Shown in pieces: positions 13,732 to 32,000 of a stretch of DNA of 32,000 bases. Under the pieces are notes generated by a model. It was not told where the DNA came from. It made no database searches and saw only the letters and a program-made list of their open reading frames with translations. The stretch covers positions 1,980,001-2,012,000 of the forward strand of contig NZ_LT934425.1 in assembly GCF_900232105.1 (NCBI RefSeq), in the 5' to 3' direction. Numbering within the stretch: position 1 is the first letter of the stretch; the number at the start of each line of letters is the position of its first letter. A program made the position numbers and the translations under genes. This stretch comes from Candidatus Kuenenia stuttgartensis. GTDB taxonomy: Bacteria > Planctomycetota > Brocadiia > Brocadiales > Brocadiaceae.

Positions 13732-15042
13732 ATGAACGTAGAAACCGATAAGAAATCAGGATATGTATTTAAAGCCCCCAGAGGCACTGAAGATGTTTTG
13801 CCAGGCAATTGGGATTTGTGGAAGAAACTGGAGGAGGCGGGCCGTCAGGAGTTCGAATTATGCGGATACTATGAAATCCGCACCCCGGTTTTTGAAGACA
13901 CGCGCCTTTTTGTAAGAAGCATAGGCGAGGCGACTGATATTGTGGAAAAAGAGATGTATACCTTTTCAGACAGTGAAGATTCGAGCATAACATTGCGTCC
14001 TGAAAATACCGCGCCTGTTATGCGGGCATATCTGGAATATGAACTGCACAAAACAAAAAAATTTCAAAAGTACTATTACATCGGTCCGCAATTCAGGAAA
14101 GAACGCCCTCAGGCAGGCAGACTTCGCCAGTTCCACCAGATGGGGATAGAAGCGGTTGGCGCAAACGACCCATTACTCGACGTAGAAACGATTGGTGTTG
14201 CAGTGAGGATTTTTGAGCGTATCGGGTTGAAAGGTTACAATGTGAAGATCAATTCAATAGGTTGTAATGAATGCAGGCCGGTATTCAGAAATATCATAAA
14301 GGACATCCTCTGCGAGCGCGAGACTGCATTATGCGAACTTTGCCAATCACGGCTTCACAGGAATGTATTTCGTATACTTGATTGCAAGAATGAAAAATGC
14401 AAGGAAGTAACACATCAACTGCCGCCTGTGAATGACTATCTCTGTGAAGAATGCCGTATTCATGCAAATAGCGTCAGAGAAGCCTTGGTGGGAATAGGCA
14501 TCCCTTATATTGCGGATGCGCATCTTGTGAGAGGGTTGGATTACTATACGAAAACGGTTTTCGAAATTACCCATTCTTCATTAGGTGCCCGCGATGCAAT
14601 CTGCGCCGGCGGGAGGTACGACAATCTGATCGCCGATATGGGAGGGCCTTCCATCGGTGCTGTCGGGTTTGCGATAGGAATGGAGGCAACTATTCTTGCG
14701 ATGCAAAATGTATTAAACAAAAAAAAACAGCCTGTTCATCTCGAAATTAACGAGCCTGCGCCAACGGTTTACATCGTTTCTATCGACAAGGAGATCAAAA
14801 AGCATTGCTTTTACCTGCTCAACCTTTTGAGAAAGTCCGGTATTTCCGCGGATCTGGATTATGAAGGGAGGAGTCCGAAGGCACAAATGCGTGTTGCAAA
14901 TAAACTGGGGGTAAAATACGTTCTGGTGCTGGGGCCTGATGAATTGGAAAGGGGTAATGTTAAGGTAAAAATAATGGAAACGGGCGAAGAGGTTATCGTA
15001 AGGCAGGATGAGATACTCAATTGGTTCCTTCAAAAACGATAA
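13732..15042 (+). CDS. hisS: Histidine--tRNA ligase
   Basis: 436 aa with class II aaRS motifs: FKAPRGTEDVLPG, YYEIRTPVFE, LRPENTAP, YYIGPQFRKERPQAGRLRQFHQ and AICAGGRYDNL. The C-terminus is an anticodon-binding domain. Confidence 0.95.
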   Translation: MNVETDKKSGYVFKAPRGTEDVLPGNWDLWKKLEEAGRQEFELCGYYEIRTPVFEDTRLFVRSIGEATDIVEKEMYTFSDSEDSSITLRPENTAPVMRAYLEYELHKTKKFQKYYYIGPQFRKERPQAGRLRQFHQMGIEAVGANDPLLDVETIGVAVRIFERIGLKGYNVKINSIGCNECRPVFRNIIKDILCERETALCELCQSRLHRNVFRILDCKNEKCKEVTHQLPPVNDYLCEECRIHANSVREALVGIGIPYIADAHLVRGLDYYTKTVFEITHSSLGARDAICAGGRYDNLIADMGGPSIGAVGFAIGMEATILAMQNVLNKKKQPVHLEINEPAPTVYIVSIDKEIKKHCFYLLNLLRKSGISADLDYEGRSPKAQMRVANKLGVKYVLVLGPDELERGNVKVKIMETGEEVIVRQDEILNWFLQKR

Positions 15043-15256
15043 ACCGGCAAGCGCAATTTAGTCTCACGTCCGTAGTTAAAGAATAGCAAGACACGCGATA
15101 CAGCAAAAAGGAATTTTTAGATAAAGATCAACGGTATTGCAACCCTCTCTTCACAACAAAAATCCCGCCCTGAATCTTCCTTGCAATAAAGACACATTAT
15201 TTTTTTTCGGACCATTTTAAATGAGAAATTTGTAATCCACAGGAGGCAGTAAACAC

Positions 15257-17020
15257 ATGTCTAAATTAAAGCGAACGTGTACGTGTGGACAGTTGCGCTT
15301 AAAAGAGGTCGATTCAACGGTAGTTTTGATGGGATGGGTAGATAGCGTTCGGGACCACGGAGGAGTAATTTTTATCGATCTCAGGGACAGAGAGGGAATT
15401 ACCCAGGTGGTTTTTAATCCTGACACGGCAAATAAATCATGTGAACTTGCACATCAATTAAGATCTGAATACGTTATCGCAATAAAGGGAAAGGTTGCTG
15501 CCAGGCCCGCCGGTACCGTCAATCCGGATTTAGCTACCGGCGAGATAGAGGTGCTTGCCGATGAGCTTGAAATTTTTAATAAATCCGAAACGCCGCCATT
15601 TGAAATCATTGACAATTCCAACGTTTCATTAGAATTAAGGCTGAAATATCGTTATCTGGACCTGAGACGTTCAGAAATGCAAACGCATTTAATTTTCCGT
15701 CATAAGGTGTGCCAGACTATACGTGAATATTTTAACACACGGGGTTTTATTGATATTGAGACGCCTGTACTGACAAAGAGTACCCCCGAGGGCGCCAGGG
15801 ACTATCTGGTTCCCAGCAGGGTGAATCATGGCAAGGTATATGCTTTACCGCAATCTCCGCAACTATTTAAGCAGGTGCTTATGGTTTCAGGGTTTGACCG
15901 CTATTTTCAAATCGTCCGGTGTTTCCGGGACGAAGATCTCCGCGCACAACGGCAACCGGAGTTTACCCAAATCGATATGGAAATGTCTTTTGTGGATGAG
16001 GAGGATATTATACAGGTTATCGAAGGGCTGATTGCTGCGATTTTTGAAAAGGTTGTGGGGAAACCGGTCAACCTGCCGTTCCCCAGATTATTGTATCAGG
16101 AGTCCATGGCGTCCTATGGATGCGACGCCCCTGATTTACGATTCGGTATGAGGATACAGGATGTTTCTCACATTGTAAAAGAATCAAACTTTAAGGTTTT
16201 TTTAGAGACAATTAACTCCGGCGGGCAGGTGCGGGCGATAAACGCGGCAGGGTGCGGGCATTATTCGAGAAAAGATATAGATGAATTAACGGAATTTGTA
16301 AGCCAGTTTGGCGCCAGGGGGCTGGCCTGGTTCAAAGTGGAAGAAACAGGTCTGGTTTCCTCAATAACTAAATTTTTTCCTCCGGAAATATTGCAGAAAA
16401 TTCAGCAGCACATGAATGCTAAAGCCGGTGATTTGCTCCTGTTTGTTGCGGATAAGGAAAAGGTCGTATCCCAATCCCTGGCGCATCTCCGGACGCATCT
16501 TGGTCATAAAAACAATCTTATCAATGCAGAGGAATTTAATTTTGTATGGATTGTTGATTTCCCGCTGTTCGAATATAATGAAGATGCGAAACGTTACGTG
16601 GCCCTCCATCACCCGTTTACCTCGCCCCGGTCTGAAGATATTCCTTTCCTGGAGGAAAAACCCTTGGAAGTCAGGGCAAGGGCATACGATCTCGTGCTGA
16701 ATGGCGTGGAGCTTGGAGGAGGCAGTATTCGTATTCATTCCCCTGAAATACAGAAAAGGGTGTTTCGCCTGCTGGGGATAAACGATAACGATGCGTATCA
16801 GAAATTTGGATTTCTGCTGGATGCGTTAAAATTCGGAGCACCGCCCCATGGCGGAATTGCATTGGGAATTGACCGCATGATTGCATTGTTGTTGCACCTT
16901 GACGATATCCGGGAAGTAATCGCATTTCCAAAAACACAGAAAGCTACCTGCCCCATGACGGAAGCCCCTTCTGAAGCAGACCCGCAACAATTAAAAGAAC
17001 TGGGCATAAGCCTTGCCTGA
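15257..17020 (+). CDS. aspS: Aspartate--tRNA ligase (bacterial type; discriminating or non-discriminating not decidable)
   Basis: 587 aa. OB-fold N-terminus (VVLMGWVDSVRDHGGVIFIDLRDREG), then FRDEDLRAQRQPEFTQIDMEMSF, a GAD insertion domain, GGGSIRIH and PPHGGIALGIDR. An AGGAGG RBS lies 10 nt upstream. Confidence 0.95.
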   Translation: MSKLKRTCTCGQLRLKEVDSTVVLMGWVDSVRDHGGVIFIDLRDREGITQVVFNPDTANKSCELAHQLRSEYVIAIKGKVAARPAGTVNPDLATGEIEVLADELEIFNKSETPPFEIIDNSNVSLELRLKYRYLDLRRSEMQTHLIFRHKVCQTIREYFNTRGFIDIETPVLTKSTPEGARDYLVPSRVNHGKVYALPQSPQLFKQVLMVSGFDRYFQIVRCFRDEDLRAQRQPEFTQIDMEMSFVDEEDIIQVIEGLIAAIFEKVVGKPVNLPFPRLLYQESMASYGCDAPDLRFGMRIQDVSHIVKESNFKVFLETINSGGQVRAINAAGCGHYSRKDIDELTEFVSQFGARGLAWFKVEETGLVSSITKFFPPEILQKIQQHMNAKAGDLLLFVADKEKVVSQSLAHLRTHLGHKNNLINAEEFNFVWIVDFPLFEYNEDAKRYVALHHPFTSPRSEDIPFLEEKPLEVRARAYDLVLNGVELGGGSIRIHSPEIQKRVFRLLGINDNDAYQKFGFLLDALKFGAPPHGGIALGIDRMIALLLHLDDIREVIAFPKTQKATCPMTEAPSEADPQQLKELGISLA

Positions 17021-25661: not shown

Positions 25662-27116
25662 TTGTTTGAACAAACCTTCAAGAATATAGACGACATCCTC
25701 CACAAAGACGCCGGTTGCAGCAGCGAACTGGACTATGTGGAGCAGACCTCGTGGATTCTTTTCCTGAAATATCTGGATGATTTTGAGAAGGATAAGAAAA
25801 CCGCGGCAGAGCTTGCCGGTAAATACTATGAAGGTATTATTGACAAACAATACAAATGGGAAGTCTGGGCAGTGCCCAAAGGCAAAGACGGCAAGATCGA
25901 TCATCATAAGGCGCTTACCGGCGATGACCTGAAAGACTTTGTTGACCACAAGCTGTTCCCTTACCTGAAAAAATTCAAAACGTCAGCCGAAAGCGCCGAC
26001 ACCATCGAATACAAGGTCGGCGAGATTTTCAGCGAGCTGAAAAACAAGATTCAGAGCGGCTATAACCTGCGCGAAGTCATTAATCGTATCGATGAACTCC
26101 GCTTTCGCTCCCACGCTGAGAAGCATGAGATGTCGCACCTGTACGAAAACAAAATCAAGAATATGGGCAACGCCGGCAGAAACGGCGGCGAATACTACAC
26201 GCCCCGTCCGCTCATAAAAACCATCGTGAAGGTGGTTGCACCCACCATCGGCAACAAGGTGTATGACGGCGCGGTCGCTTCGGCGGGCTTCCTGGCGGAG
26301 GCTTTTGAATATCTGAAAACCAGCAAGAACCTAACCACCAAAGATGCGGAGACACTTCAGAAAAGAACCTTCTACGGAAAGGAAAAGAAGTCGCTCGCCT
26401 ACATCATCGGCACGATGAACATGATTCTGCACGGCATCGAAGCGCCCAACATCGTGCATACCAACACGCTGACGGAAAACATGGCCGATATCCAGGAAAA
26501 AGACCGTTACGACGTCATCCTTGCCAATCCCCCGTTTGGCGGTAAGGAACGCACCGAGGTGCAGCAGAACTTCCCTATCAAAACCGGCGAAACGGCTTTT
26601 CTGTTCCTTCAGCATTTCATCAAAATCCTGAAAGCGGGCGGAAAAGCGGGTGTGGTGATTAAGAATACCTTTCTTTCCAACACTGATAATGCGTCCGTAT
26701 CTTTGCGCAAACTGTTATTGGAAAGTTGTAATCTGCATACGGTGCTGGATCTGCCCGGCGGCACCTTTACCGGTGCGGGCGTCAAAACAGTGGTGCTGTT
26801 TTTTGAAAAAGGCGTACCAACTCAAAACGTCTGGTTTTATCAGCTCAATCTGGACAGAAAACTCGGCAAGACCAACCCGTTGAACGAAAACGATCTGGCG
26901 GAGTTTGTAGAATTACAAAAGACCAAGGCCAATTCGGAAAACTCATGGTCGGTGAATGTGGCCGATGTAGATAAAACCACATTCGGCCTGTCGGTGAAGA
27001 ATCCGCATAAAAAAGATGAACCCGCGCTACGTGAACCGGGAATAATTTTGGACGAGATGAAGGCGCTGGATGAAGAGAGTGAAATGATTTTCAAAAATAT
27101 TTTAAGGATTTTATGA
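25662..27116 (+). CDS. hsdM: Type I restriction-modification system, DNA methyltransferase subunit M
   Basis: 484 aa. The TTG start has a GGGAG RBS 9 nt upstream. HsdM_N block FEQTFKNIDDILHKDAGCSSELDYVEQTSWILFLKYLDDFE, then GEYYTPRPLIKTIV, and catalytic motif IV ILANPPFGG. Motif I reads YDGAVASAGFL (see findings). Confidence 0.95.
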   Translation: MFEQTFKNIDDILHKDAGCSSELDYVEQTSWILFLKYLDDFEKDKKTAAELAGKYYEGIIDKQYKWEVWAVPKGKDGKIDHHKALTGDDLKDFVDHKLFPYLKKFKTSAESADTIEYKVGEIFSELKNKIQSGYNLREVINRIDELRFRSHAEKHEMSHLYENKIKNMGNAGRNGGEYYTPRPLIKTIVKVVAPTIGNKVYDGAVASAGFLAEAFEYLKTSKNLTTKDAETLQKRTFYGKEKKSLAYIIGTMNMILHGIEAPNIVHTNTLTENMADIQEKDRYDVILANPPFGGKERTEVQQNFPIKTGETAFLFLQHFIKILKAGGKAGVVIKNTFLSNTDNASVSLRKLLLESCNLHTVLDLPGGTFTGAGVKTVVLFFEKGVPTQNVWFYQLNLDRKLGKTNPLNENDLAEFVELQKTKANSENSWSVNVADVDKTTFGLSVKNPHKKDEPALREPGIILDEMKALDEESEMIFKNILRIL

Positions 27117-28153
27117 GAGCTATTCTAAAATATTCAAAAAGGCAGATTGATAAAGCTGGTGGTGTTTTGTCAGGCGTGCCTGATCAAAAGATGAACAAGG
27201 ATCAAGCTATAGAAATTCTAGAAAACTTTCGATCATTACATATCCACCCTCTTATTGTATTTAGAGTGTCTTTGCAAAGAAAGTCTGAAATTATTTCTGG
27301 TGATGTACTAATTTCACAACGATTAAAAAGAGCACCATCAATTGTCAATAAATTAAAAATCCAGAAAAAGATGTCTTTATCGCAGATGCAGGATGTGGGT
27401 GGTTTGCGTATCGTACTGAATAATCTTGACGAAGTATATAAGCTTAAAGATCTAATACGTGCTGGCGAGACACAAATCGCCTTCAAATCTATTCTTTTAA
27501 AAGAAATAGATTATATTAATAACCCTAAAGAAAGTGGATACAGAAGCATTCATTTGATTTATAAATATAATAAAAATGCTCCTAATGCGAGTCAGTGTCG
27601 AATTGAAATACAGATTAGAACAAAAATACATCACGCATGGGCGACGGCAGTTGAAGTTATAGGCACGTACCTCAGGCAACCATTAAAACAAAGTTTTGGG
27701 GATAAAGAACTATTAGATTTATTTAAAGAAATAAGTAAAGTATTTATTTTATTGGAAAACAAAAAAATGGATATTTCTTTATTCAAAAATACAGTAAATA
27801 GAATAGATGAATTAAAATTGCGCGACAAATTACAAGGATTTTCAATGGTAACAAGGATTTCAGATCAGAACGATGAAAATAAAAAAGGTAAATATTTTCT
27901 TATATCCTTGAATTTTAAGAATAAGACATTGACTGTAAAAAGATTCACTGCCTCAAAGTTAGATCAAGCAAATAGTGAATATTCTGAATTAGAAAAAAAA
28001 TACTTGAATGATAATAATACGGAAGTTGTTCTTGTATCAGTAGATGATATTAATAATCTAAGAAAATTGTATCCTAATTATTTCTTGGACACACAAGAAT
28101 TTGTAAAGTTCCTAGACATAGTGAACAAGGAAATTGAAAAATATGAAAACTAA
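27113..28153 (+). CDS. RelA/SpoT-domain (alarmone-synthetase fold) protein with uncharacterised C-terminal domain; candidate toxSAS/CapRel-like effector
   Basis: 346 aa. All synthetase-fold blocks are present: RLKRAPSIVNK (RxKx3Sx3K), DVGGLRIV, ESGYRSIHLIY and IEIQIRTKIHHAWATAVE. There is no HD hydrolase domain. ATGA overlap with hsdM and an 11-nt overlap with hsdS. The gene is strongly AT-rich. Confidence 0.85.
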   Translation: MRAILKYSKRQIDKAGGVLSGVPDQKMNKDQAIEILENFRSLHIHPLIVFRVSLQRKSEIISGDVLISQRLKRAPSIVNKLKIQKKMSLSQMQDVGGLRIVLNNLDEVYKLKDLIRAGETQIAFKSILLKEIDYINNPKESGYRSIHLIYKYNKNAPNASQCRIEIQIRTKIHHAWATAVEVIGTYLRQPLKQSFGDKELLDLFKEISKVFILLENKKMDISLFKNTVNRIDELKLRDKLQGFSMVTRISDQNDENKKGKYFLISLNFKNKTLTVKRFTASKLDQANSEYSELEKKYLNDNNTEVVLVSVDDINNLRKLYPNYFLDTQEFVKFLDIVNKEIEKYEN

Positions 28154-29303
28154 CTGGCAAATAAAAAAACTCGGCGAGGTTTGTGAAATCAAACCACCAA
28201 AAAAAGAAGCAAGAGACCGATTGAATGATGATGACATTGTCTCGTTTGTGCCTATGGAAGATTTGGGAATATTGACAAAGAATTTTATTGCAACAAAGGA
28301 AAGACCGCTGAAAGAAGTATCTGGAAGCTATACGTATTTTTCCGATAATGATGTGCTTCTCGCAAAAATTACGCCTTGTTTCGAAAATGGCAAAATTGGA
28401 ATTGCTCGCAATTTAAAGAATGGTATTGGTTTCGGCTCAAGTGAATATATTATTTTTCGATCACGTGGCGAAGTAATACCTGATTACTTGTACTACTATT
28501 TAGCTCGTGACCAGTTCAGGCAAGACGGCAAAAAAGTGATGACTGGCGCAGTTGGCCATAAACGAGTGCCGAAAGACTTTGTTGAAAACCAAAAAATACC
28601 TTATCCCAATTCCCTCCCCGAACAACAGCGTATCGTTGCCATTCTGGAGGAGGCTTTTGCCGCCATCGCCACAGCAAAAGAAAAAACCGAAAAGAATCTG
28701 CAAAACGCCCGCGAGCTTTTTGCGTCGTATCTGCAGAGTGTCTTTGCCAATCCGGGGGACGGGTGGGAAGAGAAGACATTGGGGGAATGCTTTAAATTAA
28801 AAAGTGGCGATAATATAACAAGCAAAATGATGATTGAGAATGGAAAGTATCCTGTTTATGGTGGTAATGGAATCGCGGGGATGTATAATAAATTTAATCT
28901 ATCAGGGAGCAATGTAATTGTAGGTAGAGTCGGAGCTTTATGCGGAAATGTAAGGCATATAGAAGAGGCTATTTGGCTCACTGATAATGGATTCAAAATA
29001 ACAGATTGTAAATATGATTTTGATAATGCGTTTCTTGCATATTTATTGAACTTAAAGAATCTACGAAATTATGCAAGGCAAGCAGCACAACCAGTCATTT
29101 CAAATTCATCATTAGAAGAGGTGTTACTACAATTTCCAAAATCATTAAAAGACCAAAAATCCATCGTCACCAAACTCGATGCGCTTTCCGCCGAAACCAA
29201 AAAGCTCGAGGCCATTTACCGGCAAAAGCTCGCAGACCTGGACGAATTGAAAAAATCGGTATTGCAAAAGGCGTTCACAGGACAATTGACAATGGAAAAT
29301 TGA
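28143..29303 (+). CDS. hsdS: Type I restriction-modification system, specificity subunit S
   Basis: ATG28143 is preferred over TTG28134. Two target-recognition domains (WQIKKLGEVCEI... and WEEKTLGECFKLKSG...) are separated by the conserved helices LPEQQRIVAILEEAFAAIATAKEKTEKNLQNARELF and LKDQKSIVTKLDALSAETKKLEAIYRQKLADLDELKKSVLQKAF. Confidence 0.9.
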   Translation: MKTNWQIKKLGEVCEIKPPKKEARDRLNDDDIVSFVPMEDLGILTKNFIATKERPLKEVSGSYTYFSDNDVLLAKITPCFENGKIGIARNLKNGIGFGSSEYIIFRSRGEVIPDYLYYYLARDQFRQDGKKVMTGAVGHKRVPKDFVENQKIPYPNSLPEQQRIVAILEEAFAAIATAKEKTEKNLQNARELFASYLQSVFANPGDGWEEKTLGECFKLKSGDNITSKMMIENGKYPVYGGNGIAGMYNKFNLSGSNVIVGRVGALCGNVRHIEEAIWLTDNGFKITDCKYDFDNAFLAYLLNLKNLRNYARQAAQPVISNSSLEEVLLQFPKSLKDQKSIVTKLDALSAETKKLEAIYRQKLADLDELKKSVLQKAFTGQLTMEN

Positions 29304-29313
29304 GAATGGGTGA

Positions 29314-29499
29314 TTGAAAACGAGCAATGTGGTCAAAGAGAAGTCGTTTTACGTTCGCGGTGCGGGTAGTGGACCGGCTACCGAACGTTGTCAGCGCCTG
29401 AATACCAGCGAAGCGGAGTCGGCCATCAACGACAACAAGGAACTCTTGAAACTGTTAACCCGTATCATCAACTCAACTAAACAAGGAATGGACACATGA
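29314..29499 (+). CDS. Doubtful small ORF (61 aa, TTG start) in the hsdS-fic spacer
   Basis: It is an open frame only, with no motif and no RBS. It is chained by an ATGA overlap to a further 35-codon ORF (29496-29603) that ends 2 nt before the fic ATG. Confidence 0.2.
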   Translation: MKTSNVVKEKSFYVRGAGSGPATERCQRLNTSEAESAINDNKELLKLLTRIINSTKQGMDT

Positions 29500-29571: not shown

Positions 29572-29599
29572 TTGACAAAAGAGTGAAAGATTTTATACT
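29572..29599 (+). promoter_or_regulatory. Candidate internal promoter for fic (possibly giving a leaderless transcript)
   Basis: TTGACA (29572-29577), a 16-nt spacer and TATACT (29594-29599). The fic ATG at 29606 sits about 7 nt downstream and has no Shine-Dalgarno sequence. Confidence 0.3.
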
Positions 29600-29605
29600 G
29601 TAGCT

Positions 29606-30487
29606 ATGGCAAAAATCTTACATGTTTTTAATTCAATCAATCGCTTGAGAGAGCGGTATTATGTTGCGGCGGTCGGTAAACAATCGCTTTTGGATTTATT
29701 GAGCGAAGCGGAGGTTGCCGAGCAGGTGTATAACTCTAACGCCATCGAGAACAGCACCCTCACCCTTGAAGAAACTGAAAAAATCCTTTTGCAGATACAT
29801 TTAGACAGATACATCACGGAAAGAGAAATCTTTGAAGCAAAAAATCTCGCACGGGTAGTTTCTTACATCAATATCAAGGCCAAAGAACAAGAGCTTACCC
29901 TTGAGGTTATGCTATCGCTTCACAAGATGCTTATAGCGAATATCAGGGATGATATCGCCGGCAGATTTCGCAAGGACGGTGAGTGGGTCAGGGTTGCAAA
30001 CCACATAGCGCCAGACCCAAAAGAAGTGGCAGGAAGATTGGAAAAAATGCTTGCCGGATATAACGCCGCCAGCCATGAAAATATTATAAAACGTATTGCG
30101 CGGCTGCATCTTACCTTTGAACACACCCACCCGTTTGTTGATGGCAATGGCCGTATCGGAAGGGTAATAAATAACTATTTGCTTATACGGGAAGGCTTTG
30201 TGCCGATGAATATTAAATTCATTGACAGGAAGATGTATTACGAGGCGTTTAAGGAGTTTGACGAAAAAGGCACTGCCAAAATCATGGAGGAAATAGTCGG
30301 CAAAGCGCTTACGAATAGTTATCACAAGAGACTTGCGTATCTGGAAGGAGCACACATTATGACGCTTGCTGAATATGCAAAAAAGCATAAAGTATCGCAC
30401 TCTAATTTGATAAATAAAGCACATCGCCAAACTATAGAAGCCTTTTTTGAAAAAGGCGTTTGGAAGATTGGAGATTACAAACCATGA
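29606..30487 (+). CDS. Fic family protein (AMPylase-type active site, class II N-terminal inhibitory motif)
   Basis: 293 aa. Canonical Fic motif HPFVDGNGRIGR (HxFx[D/E]GNGRxxR). SNAIEN near the N-terminus fits the [S/T]xxxE[G/N] inhibitory helix. The C-terminal ~60 aa is HTH-like. Confidence 0.9.
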   Translation: MAKILHVFNSINRLRERYYVAAVGKQSLLDLLSEAEVAEQVYNSNAIENSTLTLEETEKILLQIHLDRYITEREIFEAKNLARVVSYINIKAKEQELTLEVMLSLHKMLIANIRDDIAGRFRKDGEWVRVANHIAPDPKEVAGRLEKMLAGYNAASHENIIKRIARLHLTFEHTHPFVDGNGRIGRVINNYLLIREGFVPMNIKFIDRKMYYEAFKEFDEKGTAKIMEEIVGKALTNSYHKRLAYLEGAHIMTLAEYAKKHKVSHSNLINKAHRQTIEAFFEKGVWKIGDYKP

Positions 30488-31920
30488 ACGAAGCGGAACA
30501 CCCCTATTCAAAGATAAAAGCCATTATCAAGCAGGGCAAAGGGTTGACCGTTGAGTTCAAGGAGTGTAATACCGCCCTCAACAAAGATATTTACGAGACG
30601 GTGTGCGCCTTCCTGAACCGCTTCGGCGGCGAGCTTCTGCTTGGCGTTAGAGATGACGGCGTGATAACCGGTATAGTCCCTGAGTGCCTCCACCAGATCA
30701 AAAATGATTTTACGACAGCCGTCAATAATCCACAGAAAATCAGCCCGTCGTTTTATCTCTCAATGGATGAGGCCGTAATCGACGGGAAAACCATTCTCTC
30801 CATTTACATCCCCGAAAGCTCCCAGGTTCACCGCTGTAACGGGAAAATATACGACCGGAATGAAGACGGTGATTTCAATATCACGGACAACCACAACCTT
30901 GTATCCGCACTTTACCTGCGAAAGCAGATCGGCTACTCAGAAAACACTATTTACCCATATACTGAACTTGCCGATCTGCGGCCTGATGTTATAGCAAGAG
31001 TTCGAAAAATGGCTTTGCTCCAGTCGGAAAACCACCCATGGGGCGCTATGAGTGACCTTGACCTTTTGAGAAGCGTTCAGTTGTATAGGAAGGATTTTCA
31101 AACCGGGAAAGACGGTTTTACGCTTGCCGCAATACTGCTCTTTGGAAAAGACGAGACCATTCTATCGGTAGTGCCGCATTTCAGAATCGATGCCATTCTG
31201 AGACGGGACAACATCGACCGTTATGACGACCGTGACGATATCCGCACGAATCTCATCGAAAGTTATGACCGCCTGCTACGATTTGGAGAGAAACATCTGA
31301 ACGATCCGTTTTATCTGGAAAATGGCCAGAGGATAAGCCTGCGCGGCCATATTTTACGGGAAGTAATCAGCAATATCCTTATCCACCGCGAGTATGCCAA
31401 TGCGTTTCCAGCGAAGTTCGTCATTGATAGAGAAAAACTTTTCACGGAGAACAGCAATAAACCTCACGGGTATGGCATGATTGATCCGTCACATTTTACG
31501 CCCTATCCAAAAAATCCTTCTATTGCGCGATTATTCAGGGAAATTGGACGGGCGGATGAGCTTGGGTCTGGTGTTAGGAATCTGTTTAAGTATTGCAAGG
31601 CCTATTGCGGCCACGATCCGCAACTCATAGAACAGGATATTTTCAAATTCATCCTGCCGCTTACCGGGGAAGCTACCCCTCAAGCTACCCCCCAAGCTAC
31701 AGGGGAAGACGAACGGACAAAAAAAATAATGAATTACTGTCTTAACCCAAGAACAAGAGAGGAAATACAGGAGTTTACCGGTTACAAAGACAGAAAACAT
31801 TTTCGTTTAGAAATCTTACAGCCGCTTCTTGATAAGGGCTTGCTGCACCCGACTATACCCGATAAACTGACAAGCCCGAAACAGAAGTATTACTCTGCAA
31901 AGAAACGAGAGAACCTATGA
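30484..31920 (+). CDS. AlbA_2 (Schlafen-type) domain / HATPase_c_4 (RecG-C-terminal-like) / winged-helix protein
   Basis: ATG30484 is preferred (ATGA overlap with the fic stop). AlbA_2 pattern LTVEFKECNTALNKDIYETVCAFLNRFGGELLLGVRDDGVITGI. Later LREVISNILIHREYANAFPAKFVI...ELGSGVRNLFKYC is typical of the 'putative ATP-dependent DNA helicase RecG-like transcriptional regulator' family. The C-terminus is wHTH-like. ATGA overlap with hsdR. Confidence 0.8.
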   Translation: MNEAEHPYSKIKAIIKQGKGLTVEFKECNTALNKDIYETVCAFLNRFGGELLLGVRDDGVITGIVPECLHQIKNDFTTAVNNPQKISPSFYLSMDEAVIDGKTILSIYIPESSQVHRCNGKIYDRNEDGDFNITDNHNLVSALYLRKQIGYSENTIYPYTELADLRPDVIARVRKMALLQSENHPWGAMSDLDLLRSVQLYRKDFQTGKDGFTLAAILLFGKDETILSVVPHFRIDAILRRDNIDRYDDRDDIRTNLIESYDRLLRFGEKHLNDPFYLENGQRISLRGHILREVISNILIHREYANAFPAKFVIDREKLFTENSNKPHGYGMIDPSHFTPYPKNPSIARLFREIGRADELGSGVRNLFKYCKAYCGHDPQLIEQDIFKFILPLTGEATPQATPQATGEDERTKKIMNYCLNPRTREEIQEFTGYKDRKHFRLEILQPLLDKGLLHPTIPDKLTSPKQKYYSAKKRENL

Positions 31921-32000
31921 ACGAAGCGGAAACCAGAGCGGAACTGATTGACCCGAAGCTCAAAGAAAGCGGCCGGGGCGTGGTGGACGGGTCAAAAATA
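31917..32000 (+). CDS. hsdR: Type I restriction enzyme, R subunit (5' end only; runs off the window)
   Basis: MNEAETRAELIDPKLKESGRGVVDGSKI is the characteristic HsdR N-terminal (HSDR_N) opening. Confidence 0.85.
   Translation, partial: MNEAETRAELIDPKLKESGRGVVDGSKI

Follow-up and report, generated by a model that had tools for sequence, protein, structure and literature searches.

The window analyzed here is a stretch of 32,000 nucleotides of the Candidatus Kuenenia stuttgartensis genome (contig NZ_LT934425.1, positions 1,980,001 to 2,012,000), and the gene in question is an open reading frame (ORF) that lies between the methyltransferase and specificity genes of a Type I restriction–modification (R-M) operon. 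This gene, which we predict to encode a toxin of the CapRel family and refer to as the CapRel-like gene, is interlocked with its neighbors at both ends. Its start codon overlaps the stop codon of hsdM as ATGA, with a Shine–Dalgarno-like AAGGA site 5 nt upstream, and its stop codon is overlapped by 11 nt by hsdS, whose ATG lies at 28143. The three genes are:

25662..27116, forward strand: hsdM, Type I methyltransferase of 484 amino acids (Pfam N6_Mtase, E 5e-63, and HsdM_N; PADLOC MTase_I, E 7.6e-158).
27113..28153, forward strand: predicted CapRel-family toxSAS gene with toxin and antitoxin/sensor on one chain (ATG-initiated ORF, 346 amino acids).
28143..29303, forward strand: hsdS, Type I specificity subunit of 386 amino acids (Pfam Methylase_S, E 8.6e-34; 386 amino acids in six assemblies).

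The initial annotation of this locus, made from the DNA letters alone, had described a RelA/SpoT-fold protein with every conserved block intact, and all four of the motif blocks it quoted are present in the 346-residue ORF: RLKRAPSIVNK at residues 70–80, DVGGLRIV at 94–101, GYRSIHLIY at 142–150, and EIQIRTKIHHAWATAVE at 165–181. RelA_SpoT is the sole Pfam domain of the protein (residues 69–179, E 4e-21, 75.8 bits against a cut-off of 27), and the Pfam scan finds no hydrolase domain, in agreement with the earlier description. That description had also included the lack of an adjoining small antitoxin ORF. We likewise find none between the end of hsdM (27116) and the start of hsdS (28143); because both boundaries of the CapRel-like gene overlap neighboring genes, there is no room for one, and a separate antitoxin gene was rejected on this ground. 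Antisense ORFs of 94, 60, and 65 amino acids within the gene are called as genes in none of six assemblies. The C-terminal 151 residues are 13.9% Lys, 13.2% Leu, and 10.6% Asn, with neither Cys nor His. The region had thus been described correctly as Lys/Asn/Leu-rich and Cys-free but not as devoid of motifs, given that it carries the sequence YPNYF at residues 320–324 and is homologous to the antitoxin domain of CapRelSJ46.

CapRelSJ46, the archetypal fused toxSAS defense protein, from the Salmonella phage SJ46, is the top match to the protein in a phmmer search of the PDB (entries 7ZTB and 9ERV), with residues 4–335 aligning to residues 12–367 at an E value of 2.6e-38. The matches to RelP, RelQ, and RelA are at 1e-12 or weaker, and those to RelP and RelQ structures (E 1e-10 to 1e-12) are restricted to the core at residues 64–220. 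Overall identity to CapRelSJ46 is 35% over 324 columns; the toxin domain, at 40%, is better conserved than the C-terminal domain, at 29%. In public Candidatus Kuenenia stuttgartiensis records, the protein is listed either as “GTP pyrophosphokinase YwaC” or as “RelA/SpoT domain-containing protein.” The first name, together with the core matches to RelP and RelQ, would fit a small alarmone synthetase with a housekeeping role, comparable to RelQ, RelP, or YwaC, that makes (p)ppGpp for stress signaling. We consider such a role scarcely credible, given that the RelP and RelQ matches leave out the additional 150-residue C terminus, which corresponds to the CapRel antitoxin domain, and that the gene is a low-GC insert (GC, guanine-plus-cytosine content) in an R-M operon with a patchy, cross-phylum distribution. 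In addition, the NCBIfam equivalog for this family, GTPPhKinYjbM, scores the protein at 64.6 bits against a cut-off of 320, and for this reason the housekeeping name is unjustified. Membership in the RelQ/RelP/YwaC/YjbM group was rejected both on this score and on length, with 346 amino acids compared to approximately 210–230 for these single-domain proteins.

The alignment to CapRelSJ46 and the predicted structure divide the protein as follows:

27113..27697, forward strand: N-terminal toxin domain (residues 1–195), comprising leading helices and a toxSYNTH / RelA_SpoT nucleotidyltransferase core, from Pfam and the CapRelSJ46 alignment.
27698..28117, forward strand: predicted C-terminal antitoxin/sensor domain (residues 196–335), from a profile match to CapRelSJ46 and the secondary structure of the AlphaFold2 model.
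28070..28084, forward strand: YPNYF (residues 320–324), the putative YXXY neutralization motif with Y320 and Y323, aligned with Y352 and Y355 of CapRelSJ46.

Within the C-terminal domain, anchor-1 helices (residues 196–245) are followed by a Cys-free pseudo-zinc-finger β-sheet (246–310) and by anchor-2 (311–335). Both profile search and structure prediction lead from this region to the antitoxin domain of CapRelSJ46. A profile of the C-terminal domain returns residues 238–369 of CapRelSJ46 as the only significant PDB match (E 5.7e-11, with the next match at 0.53), and the domain as a lone sequence also finds CapRelSJ46 as its sole match (E 0.003). The AlphaFold2 model, built from an alignment of 29 homologues at 39–75% identity, has a mean predicted local distance difference test score of 88 and a predicted template modeling score of 0.85. 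Its best Foldseek match in the PDB is 7ZTB_B (E 1.6e-22, template modeling score 0.67, 360 columns), and the remaining good matches are limited to the N-terminal half of the model. The predicted β-strands at residues 248–251, 261–267, 272–278, and 303–309, with a helix at 280–296 between strands, agree with the topology reported for the antitoxin domain (PMC9712102).

The residues on which CapRelSJ46 depends are largely retained. R70, R99, and Y143 align with and are identical to R79, R116, and Y155 of CapRelSJ46, where the two arginines stack against the ATP adenine and Y155 is the G-loop tyrosine, whose mutation to alanine abolishes defense (PMC9712102, PMC11578894). Similarly, V306 and L307 are identical to V338 and L339, which form the scaffold of the autoinhibitory interface (PMC9712102, PMC11578894), and S309 and L319 take the place of A341 and A351, respectively. 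The YXXY motif plugs the ATP site in CapRelSJ46, and either Y352A or Y355A renders the protein constitutively toxic (PMC9712102). Among the 29 homologues, R70, R99, and Y143 are invariant, as are P321, Y323, F324, and D326; Y320 is nearly so, and V306 and L307 are also invariant or nearly so.

From full-length sequence and modeled structure, with the catalytic and autoinhibitory residues conserved, we predict that the ORF at the hsdM–hsdS junction encodes a single-chain, self-inhibited anti-phage toxin and is a new addition to the CapRel family. The suggestion of a fused, CapRel-like sensor–effector of the toxSAS type is thereby well supported, and the pattern of conservation across the domains is that of other CapRel proteins, in which the sensor is the variable part. 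The window protein and CapRelSJ46 are alignable over their full lengths and share the functional residues, the Cys-free pseudo-zinc-finger domain, and a match to the PADLOC model PDC-S33. They differ in that the sensor domain of the window protein is only 29% identical and carries several deletions (346 amino acids compared to the 373-residue 7ZTB chain), and in that the gene lies on the chromosome of an anammox planctomycete, embedded in a Type I R-M operon, whereas CapRelSJ46 is carried by a prophage. The PhRel/ATphRel pair and the unfused CapRel/ATcapRel pairs share the toxin fold of the window protein and the ancestry of its antitoxin domain (PMC9712102). Each of these consists of two genes, however, whereas in the window toxin and antitoxin are fused with no adjacent small ORF.

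The gene also belongs to a family that has been cataloged as a defense candidate. The protein matches PADLOC PDC-S33 (PDLC04999) with an E value of 1.5e-104 and 348 bits, residues 4–338 covering positions 5–342 of the 349-position profile. This match, like that to 7ZTB, greatly exceeds chance expectation. When residues 12–367 of CapRelSJ46, reconstructed from the printed alignment, were scanned against PADLOC, they matched PDC-S33 alone, at full length and with an E value of 3.5e-86. As CapRelSJ46 and the window protein fit the same model, PDC-S33 can be equated with the fused CapRel family on the strength of these profile matches. Our literature search found no text that equates the two, and PDC-S33, RelA_SpoT, and PF04607 were not found in the supplements of the preprint describing “guilt-by-embedding,” the approach by which PDC candidates were defined from their position within loci for BREX, DISARM, and Type I R-M (bioRxiv 10.1101/2024.01.29.577857). 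The embedding in Type I R-M that underlies PDC-S33 (Payne et al., bioRxiv 10.1101/2024.01.29.577857) is exactly the arrangement in the window, and the embedding of defense genes in Type I R-M operons is therefore already described in that work. PDC-S33 is the label of an uncharacterized candidate, whereas CapRel is an experimentally understood family.

Beyond hsdS, the operon continues with further genes:

29314-29499: ORF of 61 amino acids directly after hsdS, annotated as a gene in several of the assemblies, with no Pfam match.
29606..30487, forward strand: Fic-domain gene of 293 amino acids, the second embedded cargo gene (Pfam Fic, E 8.8e-22; PADLOC PDC-S04, E 6.7e-34, and SoFic, E 3.2e-26).
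30484..31920, forward strand: gene with AlbA_2/Schlafen, HATPase_c_4, and Fic-like_C domains (Pfam; 478 amino acids as called), the third embedded cargo gene.
31917..32000, forward strand: start of an hsdR remnant that runs off the window, a pseudogene by tblastn with an intact HsdR.

The same order, hsdM, CapRel-like gene, hsdS, 61-residue ORF, Fic, AlbA_2/HATPase_c_4/Fic-like_C gene, and hsdR, is found in CP049055.1 and in further assemblies of Kuenenia. By tblastn, hsdR is a pseudogene with a frameshift near residue 80 in each of the five Kuenenia assemblies examined. It is truncated at approximately residue 641 of 791, with the loss of about the last 150 residues (loci L081–L086, approximately 14805–16940; comparison loci carry numbers with the prefix L), and L081 and L086 each have one further frameshift or gap. 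The Type I system of Kuenenia is probably limited to methylation, with the embedded toxin-type genes still intact. In the complete genome CP049055.1 only (L081, 17006–19329), an insertion sequence with a DDE_Tnp_1 transposase and a gene with a DruA domain lie just downstream of the hsdR remnant; both are absent from the other Kuenenia assemblies. The start of the AlbA_2/Schlafen-type gene overlaps the Fic stop codon. The best promoter-like site of the region, TTGACA-16-TATACT with 11 of 12 matches (29572–29599), is just upstream of Fic, and because it directly precedes that gene, the Fic and AlbA_2-type pair may have its own promoter.

Expression of the CapRel-like gene is probably coupled to that of hsdM and hsdS through the overlapping codons. 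A scan for internal promoters and terminators around the gene found none that was convincing, at counts close to the shuffled expectation, and this is consequently weak evidence that merely does not contradict co-transcription. The GC content of the gene is 30%, compared to 48% for hsdM and 42.5% for the whole window. The loss of hsdR next to it, along with truncated forms of 239 and 244 amino acids in one Kuenenia assembly (on a 341-kb contig), could be taken to mean that the gene is a decaying or inert passenger with no current function. This is very improbable: the identical 346-residue sequence is recorded on 228 contigs, the catalytic and autoinhibitory residues are all intact, and the reading frame is uninterrupted and translationally coupled to its neighbors.

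Placement between hsdM and hsdS raises the question of whether the protein is functionally tied to the R-M complex. The initial annotation had proposed control by, or sensing of, HsdM and HsdS, which would make the protein a guard resembling PrrC, held inactive by the Hsd proteins or monitoring them and firing once they are disabled by a phage anti-restriction factor. Such a guard would account for the translational-coupling overlaps on both sides of the gene and for the fact that, in four or more divergent Type I lineages, its closest relatives immediately follow hsdM, and PARIS, which senses Ocr, is one precedent (mentioned in PMC11578894). The genomic contexts of the homologues speak largely against it, and we regard the proposal as improbable.

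The wider family was surveyed at 80 genome loci with relatives at 35–75% identity, of which 61 upstream and 64 downstream neighbors were scorable. By Pfam, HsdM accounts for only 6 of the 61 upstream neighbors and HsdS for 5 of the 64 downstream ones. Neighbors had first been labeled by single-query phmmer with the HsdM and HsdS of the window; as this was judged too insensitive for divergent Type I families, they were rechecked with Pfam scans, which concurred (6 HsdM, 5 HsdS). PADLOC scans of the neighbors yielded top-25 lists of redundant methyltransferase and specificity models and gave no tally of other defense genes. The other neighbors include resolvases, PIN, HNH, DNA methylases, and JetD, integrase, and transposase genes, as well as housekeeping genes. 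Near-exclusive embedding of the family in Type I R-M operons was thus rejected, both by these counts and by the existence of stand-alone homologues.

The close clade, defined by at least 63% identity, comprises 12 distinct loci, and in 9 of them the gene lies directly 3′ of hsdM with the 4-nt ATGA overlap (the window, L001, L002/L087, L004, L005, L006, L094, L095, and L096/L097). The remaining three, L093, L090, and L091, are stand-alone, with no hsd gene nearby, although their proteins are 65–74% identical to that of the window and their C-terminal domains 58–71% identical. The L093 gene (74% identity) adjoins an HSP70 gene; close to the L090 gene (65%) lie a recombinase gene and a DUF2726 gene; and the L091 gene (66%) adjoins a transposase, a DUF2726 gene, and a HigBA-like pair. 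A DUF2726 gene adjoins both the KSB1 and the Omnitrophica stand-alone homologues, upstream in one and downstream in the other (L090, 5287–5787; L091, 3957–4466; L092, 1427–1936), which could be chance or a recurrent pairing.

If the sensor domain recognized HsdM, the two might be expected to vary together, and they do not. The upstream HsdM is 28% identical to that of the window in L096, 32% in L005, 37% in L095, and 35% in L060. The CapRel-like proteins of L096, L005, and L095 nevertheless retain 71–78% identity in the N-terminal domain and 52–73% in the C-terminal domain, and co-variation with the cognate Hsd proteins was rejected on these values. The L096 locus is the clearest case: its HsdM is 28% identical to that of the window and the CapRel domains are 78% (N-terminal) and 73% (C-terminal) identical, and the divergence of HsdM is thus not mirrored in the sensor domain. 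In addition, the window protein has its own complete autoinhibitory module, with the YXXY motif and scaffold residues conserved, and the hsdR pseudogene leaves little restriction activity in Kuenenia to guard.

PrrC, the other precedent for a guard, lies between hsdS and hsdR and relies on the Hsd proteins, which act as its antitoxin. The description of the window gene as occupying a PrrC-like embedded position consequently stands insofar as the gene is inside a Type I R-M operon, but the position between hsdM and hsdS is not strictly that of PrrC. Like the window protein as we interpret it, PrrC of EcoprrI is a translation-targeting abortive-infection toxin within a Type I R-M operon. Its fold is unrelated, however, combining an ABC-ATPase with an anticodon nuclease, whereas the window protein brings its own antitoxin domain. 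PrrC has moreover been described as almost exclusively R-M-embedded, unlike the window protein, which has close homologues outside R-M loci.

Other features of these loci bear on the history of the gene. At most of the close-clade loci checked (the window, L001, L002, L004, L005, L093, and L096), the CapRel-like gene has a GC content of approximately 0.30–0.33, and the host loci range from 0.31 to 0.50. The family has a patchy, cross-phylum distribution, and the Kuenenia copy has its nearest relatives in bacteria of the candidate phyla radiation. The fact that these relatives are approximately 75% identical and have the same low GC content suggests a recent cross-phylum transfer from a low-GC donor. 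In some loci, genes with no Pfam match separate the CapRel-like gene from hsdS: one of 206 amino acids in L094 (6031–6651) and three of 197, 209, and 115 amino acids in L096 (4752–6352) and L097 (6071–7671). Cargo seems to accumulate downstream of the CapRel-like gene in these two loci of candidate-phyla-radiation type (L094 and L096/L097). Genes of the RhuM family, including one RhuM–Fic fusion, lie immediately upstream of hsdM in L094 (1408–2397), L096 (1120–2160), and L097 (2439–3479).

The junction itself was surveyed in 80 metagenome loci whose HsdM is 81–100% identical to that of the window, of which 76 (81–95% identity) were evaluable. At 44 of these, hsdS directly follows hsdM, mostly with the same 4-nt overlap; at one, hsdR follows directly; and at the remaining 31, another gene comes first after hsdM, often again with that overlap. 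None of the 76 carries a CapRel-like gene at the junction, and its presence in Kuenenia is a lineage-specific acquisition. Approximately 40% of loci L099–L177 have one to four genes inserted at the junction, often joined to hsdM by an ATGA overlap. Among the 33 cargo ORFs left after removal of redundancy are YhcG/DUF1016 PD-(D/E)XK nucleases (PADLOC PDC-S02) and HEPN/HepT–nucleotidyltransferase (HEPN-MNT) pairs, as well as Bro-N, RhuM, Fic-like/AlbA_2, AbiEii-like ATPase, reverse transcriptase, TIR, and Shedu N-domain proteins. PDC-S02, PDC-S13, PDC-S04, and PDC-S05 candidates are all represented among the inserts, alongside several ORFs with no family match.

Because the same junction holds either hsdS or varied, unrelated cargo, we view it as a hotspot for interchangeable defense genes. 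The presence of unrelated genes at this site is a further argument against a guard, and the proposal that the protein is controlled by or senses HsdM and HsdS is disfavored on other counts as well: stand-alone homologues, the lack of co-variation with HsdM, and the small share of HsdM among upstream neighbors. A cargo hotspot explains the recurrent embedding better than functional coupling does, and the window gene is probably one of many interchangeable defense genes that land at the junction rather than a partner of the restriction enzyme. A comparable case is DarTG2 in the Type I R-M “RRDM” island of enteropathogenic Escherichia coli, a self-contained toxin–antitoxin cargo that is co-regulated with its operon (PMC12255303). 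Unlike the window gene, DarTG2 acts by ADP-ribosylation of DNA, comprises two genes, and is located between hsdS and hsdR.

The explanation that we favor, and consider probable, is that the gene encodes a fused CapRel toxSAS that operates as an autonomous, tRNA-pyrophosphorylating abortive-infection cassette, triggered by a phage protein and lodged at a hotspot junction. Residues 1–195 would constitute the toxSYNTH pyrophosphokinase toxin, and residues 196–346 would serve both as a cis-acting antitoxin and as the infection sensor, with two helical anchors flanking the Cys-free pseudo-zinc-finger β-sheet. By analogy with CapRelSJ46, the resting protein would be closed, with Y320 and Y323 of the anchor-2 YXXY motif plugging the site that R70 and R99 form for the ATP adenine. 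Binding of a phage-made protein to the variable surface of the pseudo-zinc-finger domain and anchor-1 would then hold the toxin open, whereupon the toxin would move pyrophosphate from ATP onto the 3′ CCA ends of tRNA, blocking translation and aborting the infection. The gene would be a horizontally mobile cassette of approximately 30% GC, transcribed together with the operon and coupled to it in translation but acting independently of HsdM and HsdS; its location between them would follow from the junction being a hotspot for defense cargo.

The assignment of tRNA as the target draws on CapRelSJ46, for which pyrophosphorylation of tRNA has been demonstrated biochemically (PMC9712102). A fused, autoinhibited toxin could instead make a toxic nucleotide, (pp)pApp or (p)ppGpp, in the manner of FaRel, Tas1, or GRel/Pag1B. 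The RelA/SpoT fold supports both chemistries, the motifs checked do not reveal the substrate, and GRel/Pag1B is an anti-phage toxSAS that produces an alarmone (bioRxiv 10.64898/2026.04.06.716658). We nonetheless find this alternative unlikely, as the tRNA-pyrophosphorylating CapRelSJ46 is by far the closest characterized relative (PMC9712102), CapRel is described as a translation-inhibiting subfamily, and none of the 15 PDB sequence matches at E ≤ 1 is a FaRel or Tas1 chain.

Several points weigh against a phage-triggered, tRNA-modifying CapRel acting on its own. Our analysis addresses homology, domain architecture, residue conservation, and genomic contexts; from these we infer by analogy that the window protein is toxic, targets tRNA, responds to a phage protein, and aborts infection. 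The toxicity, substrate, and trigger are accordingly extrapolations from CapRelSJ46, with which the window protein shares 35% identity overall and only 29% in the sensor domain, and a capsid-type trigger in particular would be a guess. The location of 9 of the 12 close-clade loci directly 3′ of hsdM is also a strong enrichment that the hotspot model explains only in general terms. It is conceivable, if improbable, that the hsdM-linked clade has become specialized as a second line of defense for Type I R-M, combining the guard logic of PrrC and PARIS with tRNA pyrophosphorylation. In that case, the sensor may recognize DNA mimics similar to Ocr or ArdA, Stp-like peptides, or a surface conserved on free HsdM instead of a capsid protein.

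The presence of a CapRel-like gene in Kuenenia does not overturn current understanding, and the family was already listed under a PADLOC candidate label. What changes is the reading of the gene and of its family: the Kuenenia “GTP pyrophosphokinase YwaC” becomes a predicted abortive-infection toxin–antitoxin, and PDC-S33 is tied to the experimentally understood CapRel family, which supplies a mechanism for this candidate. The hsdM–hsdS junction is documented across 76 related hsdM loci as a hotspot for defense cargo and could be mined for new systems. Finally, the range of CapRel is widened to the anammox Planctomycetota and to bacteria of the candidate phyla radiation.

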